From Fervidicoccaceae archaeon (GTDB lineage Archaea; Thermoproteota; Thermoprotei_A; Sulfolobales; Fervidicoccaceae): DNA of 64,000 bases. The translations under genes were made by a program, and so were the position numbers. The stretch covers positions 1 to 64,000 of the forward strand of contig JAVYOA010000002.1 of NCBI GenBank assembly GCA_038734945.1, in the 5' to 3' direction. Of this stretch, positions 34,558 to 39,052 are shown in pieces; position 1 is the stretch's first letter; every line of letters starts with the position of its first letter. The notes below the pieces were generated by a model. The model made no database searches. It was not told the origin of the DNA and saw nothing but the letters and a program-made list of their open reading frames with translations.

Positions 34558-34647
34558 TATTTTTTTAATTCTTCCTTTTTAAAAATACGAAGAGCTGAGG
34601 AACAAAAATAACATTTTAAAACCGCTTGTTCATTACTTTACTTTGTT

Positions 34648-34742
<95 letters not shown>

Positions 34743-34767
34743 TCGTTTCATAGAAAAGGTGAAAGAA

Positions 34768-35699: not shown

Positions 35700-36231
35700 A
35701 AGTCACATAGAGGAAATCAGAGGTATTCTAATAACAACAAGAACAAACAGAGAGAGAAGTGCAGAAAATGAGCTTGGAAGCTTGCTAATAAGCAGAGGAA
35801 TACCCTTCAGGATGGGGGCCGAGCTTGGTAATGGAGCAGTCCTCTTTTCAACAGAATTTCCATTTAAAGCATATAGGGCAGTAATTTCTTCTCTGCTCTC
35901 TGAACCGATGAGAGTTTATCCTCTTGTTAAGCTGAAGGACCTGGAGAGAATTCTATCATTGGTGAAAATAGATAAGATGAGATGCTATTTGAGGAAAAAA
36001 ATGGAAATCTGCAATGATATTGAGAATTATGCAAGGAAAATAATTGTAGGTAAGAATTTGGATAATACTCAGAGCTCTCTACATGTGATGCTGCACATAC
36101 AGGGATTGGGAGTATTTTATGGATATTCCCCCATTCCAAGAGATTGTGAGAGGTACGAAATGATTTTAAAGATGAGCAACCTTCGGGGATTCTGTTCTTC
36201 ATATGCAGATAAAGTATCAGCCTTGCTGTAA
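35617..36231 (+). CDS. hypothetical protein (N-terminus reminiscent of THUMP-associated domain)
   Basis: ILITTRTNRERSAENEL; start uncertain. Confidence 0.5.
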   Translation: MEGIFAEKETRSAECARSGNSVLRRGGESHIEEIRGILITTRTNRERSAENELGSLLISRGIPFRMGAELGNGAVLFSTEFPFKAYRAVISSLLSEPMRVYPLVKLKDLERILSLVKIDKMRCYLRKKMEICNDIENYARKIIVGKNLDNTQSSLHVMLHIQGLGVFYGYSPIPRDCERYEMILKMSNLRGFCSSYADKVSALL

Positions 36232-36268
36232 AGAGGAGAAATGGCGGCGGGGCCCCGCTCTTGAAAAG

Positions 36269-36356
36269 TAGCGGGGGGTGGATTCGAACCACCGACCTCG
36301 GGGTTCCTCCGAGGCCTCAGGCCCCTTATGAGCTTCGCGGGTTCGGGGCTACCGCC
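36269..36356 (-). tRNA. split tRNA-iMet(CAT) 3' half (positions 31-73 at 36333-36269) with leader 36356-36334 and 22-nt intron 36305-36326
   Basis: GGCGGTAGCCCCGAACCCGCGAA|GCTCATA[intron]ACCCCGAGGTCGGTGGTTCGAATCCACCCCCCGCTA; no D arm; leader complementary to the trailer of the 5' half. Confidence 0.9.
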
Positions 36357-36377
36357 ACTGCTTTATATGCATGGAAA

Positions 36378-36391
36378 GGATTAAAAGGTTT
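36378..36391 (-). promoter_or_regulatory. BRE/TATA-like promoter for the tRNA 3' half
   Basis: AAACCTTTTAATCC about 25 nt upstream of the GGCGG leader. Confidence 0.55.
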
Positions 36392-36393
36392 TA

Positions 36394-36900
36394 CTATTTG
36401 AGAACTGTGTCATTCAAAACAGATTCAGCCCATTTCCTTCCATAGAACCTTGAGACTTCCTCGAAATTTTCCTCTACGAAAATCCTGAGGGCTTTTCTGC
36501 TCAGGACATCTGCTGCTTCGTTGTTCTCCCTTGGAATCCACTCGATTTTATATGACTTGAAATTTCTGAGAAGATTGATAGATTTGTTGTAAAGGGGGAT
36601 CAGCCTGGGTGCCTTTACTCTGTATTTGCCAATGAGTTGCTTGATTACGAGCTGGGAGTCTCCTCTTATGGTAATATCTTTTTCAGAAAGATCGCTTTCA
36701 ATAATTAGCTCCAGCCCTCTTATCAGAGCTGTGTACTCAGCAACGTTGTTTGAAACATTGTCTCCTCTAAATCCAGCACCTACAATTCCAAATTCTTCTT
36801 TCAGAACCTTTTTATTCTCGAAGATGACAACGCCGTATGTAGCTATCCCTCCAGGATTGATAGGCTCACACAGACCATCAAAATATAAAAGGAGACCCAA
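36394..36900 (-). CDS. rnhA: ribonuclease HI
   Basis: YFDG, SNNVAEY, GDSQLV, WIPRENN..AD. Confidence 0.93.
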   Translation of the reverse strand: MGLLLYFDGLCEPINPGGIATYGVVIFENKKVLKEEFGIVGAGFRGDNVSNNVAEYTALIRGLELIIESDLSEKDITIRGDSQLVIKQLIGKYRVKAPRLIPLYNKSINLLRNFKSYKIEWIPRENNEAADVLSRKALRIFVEENFEEVSRFYGRKWAESVLNDTVLK

Positions 36901-36911
36901 GCATTTCCACC

Positions 36912-37709
36912 TTAGAGCTTATAAACCGCAGTGTTTCTCTGCTTCAGCATGGGCAGCTTCCTTCTCACTTCTTCTATTTCGGAAACTTCTATGGTGATTT
37001 CTCTGTATTTTTCCCCTACACCAAGATCGTATATTACTTCTCCCATTGGACCTATGATGGTACTTCTTCCTGTAAAATTCTTTCCATACTGATTTACTAT
37101 AGCTAAGAATATTGTGTTCTCATGCGCTCTGGCCCTCCCCAATACATGCAGAATTTCTTCCTTCATGTCTCCCCTATACCAACCAGAAGGAACGATCACG
37201 AGCTCAGCACCTCCTAGGGCATAAGTTCTGAATAGTTCTGGAAACCTTATGTCATAGCATATTGCTACTGAGATTTTCGTGCCTTTCAGCTCGATTATTG
37301 AAGATGGTGCGTTTCCCGGAAGCATGAATTCGGATTCTCTATAGTCGTAAGCATCAAAGAGATGAGCTTTTCTATATCTCAGCAGAATTTCTCCTTTTGG
37401 ACTGAAAATCACTGCTTCATTATAGACCTTTGGTTTAGAGGCAGGAGTGAAGAGCGTTGCTAAGATGTGGACGCCTAGTTTGCTTGCCAATTCTTTTAGT
37501 GAAGAAGCAAAAGCTCCATCCAATTCTTCTGCCATCATATATATTCTATCTGGTTCATCTCCTGTAGGATTGTACATGAAATACTCTGGAGTAATAATGA
37601 GATCTGCTTCCCTCAAGTTTATTATATTATTCAACTTTTCTATGTTTTTTGCCTTATCCTTAGTGCTTTCCATCTGTACTATGCCAAGAGTTATACTTCT
37701 ATTTTTCAT
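36912..37709 (-). CDS. carbon-nitrogen hydrolase (nitrilase/Nit family)
   Basis: E-K-C triad: TPEY, YRKAHLFD, ICYDIRFPE. Confidence 0.9.
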   Translation of the reverse strand: MKNRSITLGIVQMESTKDKAKNIEKLNNIINLREADLIITPEYFMYNPTGDEPDRIYMMAEELDGAFASSLKELASKLGVHILATLFTPASKPKVYNEAVIFSPKGEILLRYRKAHLFDAYDYRESEFMLPGNAPSSIIELKGTKISVAICYDIRFPELFRTYALGGAELVIVPSGWYRGDMKEEILHVLGRARAHENTIFLAIVNQYGKNFTGRSTIIGPMGEVIYDLGVGEKYREITIEVSEIEEVRRKLPMLKQRNTAVYKL

Positions 37710-37927
37710 TTTTATTCCCCGAGGAATGTTCAAAGCTTATTTTTAATTTGATCACTAAGAAAAAATCCTCGAGAATGTATAAATATTATTTGGAAAGCAT
37801 GGAGTCTGATGTCCTCTCTCTCATAAAATATGAAACTTTTAGGTTGTAAATAAGCTAGTAGGGAAATACTTATTATTCCCATCCGATAGAGAAAAAGTTG
37901 TCATAACATAAACGGAAGGTATGAATT

Positions 37928-38389
37928 TTGAACGAAGAAAACGAATCTGAAAGAAATGTAACAAAAAAAGTTATGGAGCTAAAACAAGGCGAAAGCTCCA
38001 TAACAATAAAGGGAAGGGTTCTTGAAGCAAACGAACCAAAAACCATAGAAACGAAGAAAGGGACAAGAACAATAAGTGAGGCAGTTCTAGGCGACGAAAC
38101 TGGTAGAGTGAAGATGACATTGTGGGGAGATAAGGCAGGAAGCATTGAGGAAGGACAGGCTGTGAAGATAACGAACGCATGGACCACTGGATATAGAGGG
38201 AAGGTTCAACTGAATGTTGGGGCTAGCTCAGAAATAACTCAAATTGGAGATGAAGAAGTTCCCAATGCTGAGGAGATCCCCGAATCAGAGCCAGCAGCTC
38301 CTATGGAAGAGAGGAGGGGAGGCTTTGATAGGAGAGGAGGAAGGCGAGATTACAGACAAGGCGGTGGCTTCAGAAGAAGAGAATGGTGA
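37928..38389 (+). CDS. ssb: crenarchaeal single-stranded DNA-binding protein
   Basis: Single OB fold (GDETGRVKMTLWG) with R/G-rich tail. Confidence 0.9.
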   Translation: MNEENESERNVTKKVMELKQGESSITIKGRVLEANEPKTIETKKGTRTISEAVLGDETGRVKMTLWGDKAGSIEEGQAVKITNAWTTGYRGKVQLNVGASSEITQIGDEEVPNAEEIPESEPAAPMEERRGGFDRRGGRRDYRQGGGFRRREW

Positions 38390-38397
38390 GCTGCTAA

Positions 38398-38682
38398 ATG
38401 AGCTATGCGGAAATAAAGGAAAAGAGATTTATGAGAAAGGGAGAAGAAGCAGGAACGAATAACGAGAACTTCTACATTACAGATGAATCTAATGTAACCT
38501 ATGAGCTATCTGCAGCTGTCTATTATGTCTGGAAGCTTGCTGATGGTATCAAGACAGTTGAGGAAATAGTTAAGCAAGCCAGTTCTGAGCTGAATATGCC
38601 AGAAGAAGAGCTTCAAGAACCAATAGCTGTTATCATGCTCAAGCTGCTCGAAAATAATCTTGTTTCAGAAAGCCTTGAATAA
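38398..38682 (+). CDS. PqqD-like (RRE) small protein
   Basis: YELSAAVYYVWKLADGIKTVEEIV...LLENNLV. Confidence 0.75.
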   Translation: MSYAEIKEKRFMRKGEEAGTNNENFYITDESNVTYELSAAVYYVWKLADGIKTVEEIVKQASSELNMPEEELQEPIAVIMLKLLENNLVSESLE

Positions 38683-38695
38683 AAATATATAAAAA
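38681..38695 (+). promoter_or_regulatory. BRE/TATA-like promoter for the tRNA 5' half
   Basis: AAAAATATATAAAAA about 25 nt upstream of the GGCGGGG leader at 38718. Confidence 0.6.
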
Positions 38696-38730
38696 CCCTT
38701 GGCCTAATTTTTTTATTGGCGGGGAAAAAA

Positions 38731-38780
38731 AGCGGGGTAGGGCAGCCAGGTAGCCCGCGGGAGGTGCGTGGGCTACCGCC
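38731..38780 (+). tRNA. split tRNA-iMet 5' half (positions 1-30 at 38731-38761) with complementary trailer 38762-38780
   Basis: AGCGGGGTAGGGCAGCCAGGTAGCCCGCGGG|AGGTGCGTGGGCTACCGCC; acceptor 5' strand, D arm, part of anticodon stem; T-run follows. Confidence 0.9.
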
Positions 38781-38809
38781 CTATGATTTTTTCCAAAAAC
38801 AGAAAAAAT

Positions 38810-39052
38810 CTAGAGCTTCTGAACTCTTATAGCTCCAACCGGACAAGATCCGGCTGCTTGTACGGCGCATTCATAGAGATCCTCGGGTATTTCTCCTTCT
38901 GAAAGTGAATCCGTCAAGTTAGTGGAGTACTTATCCACAACTCTGTTTTTGCCGTTATCGCTTCCAAGAACGAATACTTGCGGACATACTGTGGGAGCTA
39001 CACCACATGCTATGCATGTATCTCTGTCAACTGTTACCTTTACTTTTGCCAT
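38810..39052 (-). CDS. monocluster ferredoxin
   Basis: VDRDTCIACGVAPTVCP...CPVGAI. Confidence 0.85.
   Translation of the reverse strand: MAKVKVTVDRDTCIACGVAPTVCPQVFVLGSDNGKNRVVDKYSTNLTDSLSEGEIPEDLYECAVQAAGSCPVGAIRVQKL

Follow-up and report, generated by a model that had tools for sequence, protein, structure and literature searches.

How does an organism make its initiator tRNA when the gene lies in two pieces on opposite strands and the downstream piece carries an intron of its own, and do the two interruptions have to be removed in a set order? Both pieces are present in the window, i.e., the whole 64,000-nucleotide stretch of Fervidicoccaceae archaeon DNA analyzed here. Few tRNA genes are split, and how they arose is still a matter of debate; the excerpted text of a 2014 review gives a count of 29 trans-spliced tRNA genes from seven genomes (PMC4033280).

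Two halves of a single initiator tRNA gene

Minus-strand positions 36358–36269 contain the 3′ half of an initiator tRNA-Met(CAU), which comprises a leader, a 7-nt exon, a 22-nt intron and tRNA positions 38–73. An earlier sequence-only reading placed the feature at 36299–36340; these are plus-strand coordinates that cover it, and the feature itself is on the minus strand. A TATA-like box, CTTTTAAT (36380–36387, minus strand), is the putative promoter of the 3′ half. The same box is present upstream of the corresponding leader in the congener G002, and the spacing sets the putative transcription start near G36358, whereas a second box, CATATAAA (36368–36361), is too near to yield the full leader. 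The 25-nt leader GTGGCGGTAGCCCCGAACCCGCGAA (36334–36358, minus strand) differs from that of G002 at one of 23 aligned positions. Its segment GGCGGTAGCCC (36356–36346) pairs with the trailer of the 5′ half, its CGCG (36339–36336) pairs with C25–G28, and its AA|G forms the 3′ bulge of the trans-splicing motif.

The leader is followed by the micro-exon GCTCATA (36327–36333, minus strand), which corresponds to tRNA positions 31–37, bears the CAT anticodon and is unchanged over its 7 nt in every cis or split relative listed. As the earlier reading proposed, this exon, on the minus strand, indeed lies between a trans junction at 30/31 and a cis junction at 37/38. The 3′ exon ACCCCGAGG...CCCCGCTA (36269–36304, minus strand; 36 nt by checked numbering) contributes positions 38–73, including the 3′ strand of the anticodon stem CCCCG, a 5-nt variable loop, the T arm GGTGG/CCACC, the acceptor strand CCCCGCT and the discriminator A. 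Beyond it, a trailer element (36242–36252, minus strand) consists of CCCCGCC, the complement of a GGCGGGG upstream of the 5′ half, followed by G and CCA.

The partner was found by a whole-genome search for a matching acceptor strand, which placed it in the same window, on the plus strand. Its exon AGCGGGG...CCCGCGGG (38731–38761) covers positions 1–30 in 31 nt, including 17a, and provides the 5′ strand of the acceptor stem, the D arm and C27–G30. The trailer AGGTGCGTGGGCTACCGCCC (38762–38781) contributes GG|A, the 5′ bulge of the trans motif, and its segment GGGCTACCGCC (38770–38780) is the exact complement of the leader segment GGCGGTAGCCC. Upstream, an A/T-rich TATA-like box (38683–38694) is the putative promoter of the 5′ half, with a spacing that points to a start near 38716–38718; at 38718–38724, the leader contains GGCGGGG, the pairing partner of CCCCGCC in the 3′-half trailer. 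A T6 run (38787–38792) is the putative terminator of the 5′-half transcript. The TATA-like boxes and T runs of both halves were read by eye, and the transcription starts and ends of both halves are predicted ones. The two halves are divergent and about 2.4 kb apart, with four genes between them, and as they are on opposite strands, one transcript cannot hold both.

The trailer/leader duplex has 11 perfect base pairs plus extensions and is modeled as 18 bp (−33 kcal/mol). The adjoining trans motif at 30/31 has a central helix CGCG/CGCG, formed by C25–G28 and the leader, flanked by the bulges GG|A and AA|G. The position of this junction is fixed by sequence, since the 5′ piece runs on with A, the 3′ piece is preceded by AA and the stem needs CGGGG. 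An outer helix is absent, as positions 21–24 (AGCC) cannot pair with positions 32–35 (CUCA), which places the trans motif in the relaxed kind. The CGCGAA|G ending is common to 25 listed cis or split interruptions at 30/31.

The flanks contain further complementarity. In 18 of 21 initiator genes examined, the GGCGGGG/CCCCGCC flanks are exact complements of at least 7 nt, with covarying versions such as GGGGCCG/CGGCCCC and GGGCGAGGG/CCCTCGCCC; the control by per-genome shuffles is weak because the composition is G/C-rich. The CCCCGCC element is followed by G or A and then CCA, resembling a second acceptor end, and in the split gene the predicted pairing would add an intermolecular helix. Also, the 3′-half leader (36346–36353, minus strand) holds GGTAGCCC, an 8-mer identical to one in the D arm of the 5′ exon (38749–38756, plus strand), so that the 5′ half alone can fold into an 11-bp hairpin with its own trailer. 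The leader sequence bearing GGTAGCCC is kept in other split lineages even where the D arm is different (G010).

Joining of the three exons yields a 74-nt tRNA that ARAGORN calls as tRNA-Met(cat) and whose minimum-energy fold is exactly the cloverleaf. Among 13 intronless loci, 11 have a 74-nt gene with 1–4 mismatches to the joined exons and no gaps; of the remaining loci, L018 has a gene of 75 nt and L020 gives no match. The archaeal initiator marks are both there: A1:U72, and an anticodon stem whose foot has three G:C pairs. When introns are allowed, ARAGORN reports 43 tRNAs genome-wide with three CAT calls. Two of these have G1:C72, and the third is, by our reading, an erroneous call on a tRNA whose anticodon is TGT and whose D loop contains an insert. 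Genome-wide, no second copy of either half was found, and blastn of the 3′ half returns itself alone. Over the window, ARAGORN and Rfam miss both halves and report three other tRNAs, and Rfam at permissive E-values over 36150–38900 gives nothing meaningful, the sole related match being tRNA-Sec-like (36269–36357, 16.9 bits, E 7.4). Elsewhere in the window, tRNA-Pro(GGG) (34647–34744, plus strand) is called at 98 nt and therefore probably contains an intron of about 20 nt. A search for sequencing runs that contain the sequence turned up no RNA run, and in one metatranscriptome run (X10), from a study in which the DNA is present, 0 reads fell at the locus in about 3/100 of the run, which does not amount to a test of expression. 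Taken from the genome sequence, the locus is the only initiator tRNA-Met of the organism, encoded as two divergent pieces plus a cis intron.

The cis intron at 37/38

The 22-nt intron AGGGGCCTGAGGCCTCGGAGGA (36305–36326, minus strand) interrupts the 3′ half at 37/38 in a bulge-helix-bulge layout. Its length and site, the hairpin GGGGCC/GGCCTC, the bulges and the central helix had all been claimed from the letters, and a scripted check of the geometry bears them out. The bulges UA|A (5′) and GA|A (3′) are in register; the central helix consists of three standard pairs (C32-G, U33-A and C34-G) and an A35.G mismatch, and the inner hairpin GGGGCC/GGCCUC is 6 bp long with a UGA loop. The letters by themselves would allow the splice points to shift by one base in either direction, and the symmetric bulge rule sets them at 37/38. 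The outer helix is the anticodon stem (27–31/39–43), which exists only when the 5′ half is paired or joined.

Several lines of comparison point to the intron as a conserved element. An intron at 37/38 with the same motif layout is found in all 20 related initiator-tRNA genes tabulated. Of these, 19 keep three pairs to C32, U33 and C34; the same A.G at the fourth position and an inner hairpin of at least 5 contiguous bp are each found in 14. Most of the related introns are visibly homologous, being of an approximately 21-nt AGAGGCTGCCGCCTCGGAGAG type that occurs across the order. Removal of exactly these 22 nt restores the match to the intronless orthologues. Between this genome and G002, exons differ at 0 of 43 positions and introns at 7 of 22 columns; the 3′ exon is identical at 36/36 positions, and the 5′ exon is identical at 31/31 positions in this genome (G000), G001 and G002. 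On these sequence comparisons, i.e., the conserved site, the exact removal and the divergence of intron relative to exon, a chance match to the motif is excluded.

The cis motif is never the minimum-energy fold, in any state. The intron segment GGCCUCGG (36311–36318) pairs over 8 bp with exon C41–C48 (36291–36301, minus strand), and this helix dominates every minimum-energy fold; a similar competitor helix is present in G002. By our reading of the list, CCTCGG occurs in 12 of the 20 related introns, and its pairing with C41–C48 could be chance, a trace of intron origin or a folding switch.

Proposed order of the two splicing rounds

The genome has one endA gene above the cut-off (118 bits), a second EndA paralogue whose best matches are ‘subunit beta’ models at scores below their cut-offs, and RtcB (584 bits). 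Judged by these profile matches, the endonuclease is of the two-subunit type, which is reported, in the parts of the source consulted, to cut relaxed motifs and non-canonical introns (PMC5829648). The enzyme must in any case tolerate a missing outer helix, since the trans motif has none.

As a whole, the locus is best explained, with a probability of roughly 0.6, by an initiator tRNA made from two transcripts in a trans step followed by a cis step. The transcripts would be held together by the trailer/leader duplex and by pairing in the acceptor stem, probably with extra pairing in the flanking GGCGGGG/CCCCGCC helix, and a relaxed bulge-helix-bulge motif with a long inner helix and no outer helix would form at 30/31. 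The two-subunit endonuclease would cut this motif and RtcB would join G30 to G31. Joining would allow the anticodon stem to form, completing a canonical motif around the 22-nt intron, which a second round of cutting and joining would then remove. That the gene is split, contains a cis intron and undergoes two cut-and-join rounds is very probable; that the trans junction usually comes first is favored only by a modest degree.

The two motifs overlap. The sequence-only reading had equated the outer helix of the cis motif with the anticodon stem and assigned two of the four stem bases on the 5′ half to the trans motif. The first part stands, but the trans motif takes up all four bases, with C27 and G28 going into the helix and G29 and G30 into the bulge. 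As positions 25–30 of the trans motif overlap positions 27–30 of the cis outer helix, the motifs cannot both be complete at once. While positions 25–30 are engaged in the trans motif, the cis motif is thus barred from forming its full outer helix, as it is in the 3′ half alone, and to this extent the idea that trans-splicing has to come first is sound; as an obligatory order it is unproven, given the two-subunit EndA, the relaxed trans motif and mild energy differences.

Nearest-neighbor energies at 37°C were calculated for enforced structures because minimum-energy folding recovers neither splice motif; they ignore proteins, tertiary folding and the true growth temperature, and are rough guides only. 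For the annealed pair (minimum −84.7 kcal/mol), the trans motif is reached at −81.0 (cost +3.7), both motifs together at −74.3 (+10.4, i.e., +6.7 atop the trans motif) and the anticodon stem plus cis motif as a three-way junction at −71.2 (+13.5). In the 3′ half alone, the cis motif costs +9.5 (−30.3 vs a minimum of −39.8), and in the joined intermediate, the full canonical form costs +5.9 (−46.7 vs −52.6). These values suggest that the trans motif is the easiest to reach and that joining aids the cis motif only modestly; in the model, folding energies therefore mildly favor a trans-first order. Published cases run in the same direction. For closely spaced archaeal introns, one is described as having to leave before the second motif can form (PMC8450103), and the 37/38 motif is described as processed last in three red-alga tRNAs (PMC3728597), as far as the accessible text of both sources goes. 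For genes in cis, these cases fit an order in which the junction other than 37/38 is processed first.

The two rounds and their order are inferred, and a contending view, with clearly less than even odds yet far ahead of the remaining ones, is that no fixed order exists, the 37/38 intron being cut as a relaxed motif, made up of the central helix, one bulge and the inner hairpin, from the 3′ half or the annealed pair, before or independently of the trans junction. The enzyme type and the lack of an outer helix in the 30/31 motif itself both speak for this view, as do the 6-bp inner hairpin of the cis motif and the possibility of drawing the annealed pair with both motifs formed, at the cost given above. 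Among relatives, each interruption is also found without the other, which counts against the trans-first explanation: a 30/31 gap occurs without a 37/38 intron in G203, G009, G212, G107 and G231, and G022 has the 37/38 intron alone. The view that no fixed order exists is weakened by the cis central helix, with only three standard pairs and an A.G, and by the cost of the cis motif in the 3′ half alone. Moreover, in G002 the inner hairpin is nearly gone, with just 1 contiguous bp, which leaves the outer helix as the main support of the motif, and the outer helix should therefore matter more there.

Coexistence of the two relaxed motifs on paper would also permit all four cuts to be made on one pre-assembled complex before any ligation, with a protein holding the 7-nt exon. 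After four cuts, however, the structure leaves the micro-exon with 3 bp to the excised intron and one pair to C39; by our inference, an exon tied only to a leaving intron argues for two rounds separated by ligation, and no known precedent of a four-cut complex was found, making this route very improbable. Scarcely any weight falls on the notion that the split locus is a decaying relic and that a working initiator tRNA gene lies in unassembled DNA. The assembly is a draft of 9 contigs, but it is 99.95% complete and contains no intact initiator tRNA gene or other copy; two or three species of the genus share the same exon sequence, whereas intron and flanks vary among them. Contigs from three more hot-spring runs, which belong to two studies, also cover the locus: a single 16.8-kb contig of X3 reaches from the 3′ half to the 5′ half, and in X2 and X4, separate contigs cover pieces. 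Two of the three runs share a study with the probable source sample and are thus not independent. A split gene read from two transcripts, with the trans step preceding the cis step, remains the favored explanation.

Relatives, origin of the split and known systems

The family has 8 species representatives. In G002, the 5′ half (C7:34022-34090, minus strand) and the 3′ half (36596-36688, plus strand) are likewise on opposite strands, separated by about 2.5 kb. The 5′ half and its neighbor genes recur in G001, whose contig stops inside the nitrilase gene, short of the expected 3′ half. In genera g3, g4 and g5 (G004, G005 and G006), the gene is contiguous and contains a short hairpin intron at 30/31, the GCTCATA micro-exon and the 37/38 intron, with an additional T-loop intron in G005 and G006. 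Genus g2 (G007 and G003; L032, L022, L004 and L031) has an initiator gene without a 30/31 intron that is interrupted after position 37, with 16-nt complementary arms on one strand about 1.6 kb apart; the interruption is a giant intron or else a 37/38 split.

Gene order indicates where the break occurred. In G004, an OB-fold gene and a PqqD-like gene precede the initiator gene, on which orf204 and the endonuclease III gene converge. In the present genome, the OB-fold and PqqD-like genes stay with the 5′ half, orf204 and the endonuclease III gene stay with the 3′ half, and the RNase H-like and nitrilase genes lie between the halves. The order kept on each side places the break within the 30/31 intron of an ancestral gene that was still contiguous.

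Across the order, a 63-nt query comprising the leader, micro-exon and intron matches 23 of 325 genomes (E<=0.001). The 30/31 interruptions include short cis hairpins, pieces 1.27–1.58 kb apart on one strand, pieces 252 nt apart (G010) and pieces on opposite strands, the last class comprising this genus, G009, G212 and G231. In 13 long-gap or opposite-strand cases, a trailer/leader duplex of 16–25 bp is present, and its sequence varies by lineage while complementarity is kept. A 14-mer scan of public genome contigs was unspecific and gave chance matches; among the matches listed, the real relative is L143 (‘Desulfurococcales archaeon’). In L183–L187 (G127, G129, G160, G203 and G208), the last 15 nt (positions 60–73) lie 0.27–0.8 kb downstream of the middle piece as a third piece with its own TATA-like box, and in G127 and G129 the leader of this piece has 16 nt exactly complementary to the middle-piece trailer. 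Together with the 30/31 gap, this makes three-piece genes in G127, G129 and G203, the middle piece containing a cis intron in G127 and G129. The G135 bin (L169 and L176; 7% contamination) contains both long-gap and short cis 30/31 versions with identical downstream introns, which suggests two co-occurring strains or a very recent change.

Of the 325 genomes of the order, 12 contain an ORF of about 360–385 aa that bears the motif LAxFLAGxIDGDG (loci L189–L200; e.g., L179:1996-2688, minus strand, and L192:1054-2175, minus strand). It is located at the 30/31 gap of the initiator gene in all 12, with one flank seen at two loci cut by contig ends, and is antisense to the tRNA pieces in the cases checked (G127, G129 and G130). 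Pfam support for it is weak, with matches mostly below cut-off, and a profile search of solved structures by the ORF sequence found no endonuclease; only fold comparison pointed to LAGLIDADG enzymes. The structure model (mean pLDDT 89.8) has as top Foldseek matches the LAGLIDADG homing endonucleases PI-PfuI, I-Tsp061I, I-DmoI and I-SceI, with E-values of 3e-5 to 1e-2 and TM-scores of up to 0.49, normalized to the target. The ORF is absent from this genus, including the present genome, and the trailer and leader of this genus resemble those flanking the ORF in G127 and G129. We tentatively consider, at less than even odds, that the 30/31 break is the remnant of a mobile homing-endonuclease insert targeting the 30/31 intron of initiator genes across the order. 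The insert would stretch this intron to 1.3–1.6 kb, downstream exons would come to depend on their own promoters, and inversions would then make true trans-spliced halves, with this genus as an end state in which the endonuclease gene has been lost.

Individual features of the locus have counterparts in known systems. Split tRNA-Lys(CUU) of Staphylothermus marinus, S. hellenicus and Nanoarchaeum equitans is likewise made of two halves joined at 30/31 through a G/C-rich trailer/leader duplex and a bulge-helix-bulge motif, with 13 nt there compared with 11 perfect base pairs plus extensions here, and each half has its own promoter, as the putative promoters here would provide (PMC3218864). It differs in the tRNA concerned, in having a canonical hBHBh′ motif, whereas an outer helix is impossible here, and in that no intron is listed in either half (PMC3218864). 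The present genome also contains an ARAGORN-called tRNA-Lys(CUU) (G000:C9:427908-428140) with a 156-nt ‘intron’ near 30/31, in which a T-rich run is followed by a TATA-like box and 12-nt complementary arms GCCCGATACCCC / GGGGTATCGGGC are present; this resembles the Aeropyrum type of split, in which the halves are adjacent, and the site is the one used in Staphylothermus.

The split tRNA-iMet of N. equitans is also an initiator from two transcripts, but is split at 37/38 and has no further intron, unlike the 30/31 split with a cis intron at 37/38 seen here (PMC3218864 Table 1). Split tRNA-Asp(GUC) of Thermosphaera aggregans and Aeropyrum pernix has nearby halves, on opposite strands in T. aggregans as here, and synteny with an unsplit relative stops inside the gene, indicating recent rearrangement by the same argument as used above; that gene is split at 37/38, is convergent and has no cis intron, whereas the halves here are divergent with four genes between them (PMC3218864). 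The nearest published cases are permuted genes with a 37/38 intron. The permuted tRNA-iMet and tRNA-Tyr of Thermofilum pendens are non-collinear and also contain a canonical 37/38 intron (PMC3218864), and the permuted and multi-intron tRNAs of Cyanidioschyzon merolae have several motifs of which, according to the excerpted source, 37/38 is always processed last (PMC3728597). The permuted genes of both organisms are single transcripts processed via circles, in contrast to the two transcripts here. The tri-split tRNA-Gly of Caldivirga maquilingensis, as outlined in excerpts of three sources, likewise has a short anticodon middle exon and one junction at 37/38, but both of its junctions are trans and its middle piece (26–37) is a transcript of its own, whereas the second junction here is cis (PMC4033280, PMC4390854, PMC4090602). 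A report on ‘hybrid’ split tRNAs, considered as a related case, proved irrelevant (PMC7080975).

The nesting of two interruptions appears, from the gene sequences, not to be special to the split form, since sister genera have both in cis. A 2009 PNAS paper by Tocchini-Valentini is said to describe nested or closely spaced multi-intron pre-tRNAs of Crenarchaeota whose relaxed motifs are cut by a heterotetrameric enzyme. Those introns are reportedly all in cis, whereas two separate transcripts take the place of the first ‘intron’ here. Neither an initiator tRNA split at 30/31 nor a split half with its own intron appears in Table 1 of PMC3218864 or in the portions of reviews and full-text literature covered, subscription journals being outside this scope. 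The mechanism is thus known, and the combination and the evolutionary series are new.

The locus presents an essential, single-copy initiator tRNA that would need one trans-splice and one cis-splice around a 7-nt exon, and it offers a concrete substrate on which a set order of action of the archaeal endonuclease could be tested. The cis relatives and the conserved gene order, with the break inside an intron, form a clean natural series from intron to split gene. If the link to the endonuclease-like ORF holds, the mobile-element hypothesis for tRNA splitting would become directly testable; were the insert scenario itself true, a homing element would be a direct cause of split tRNA genes.
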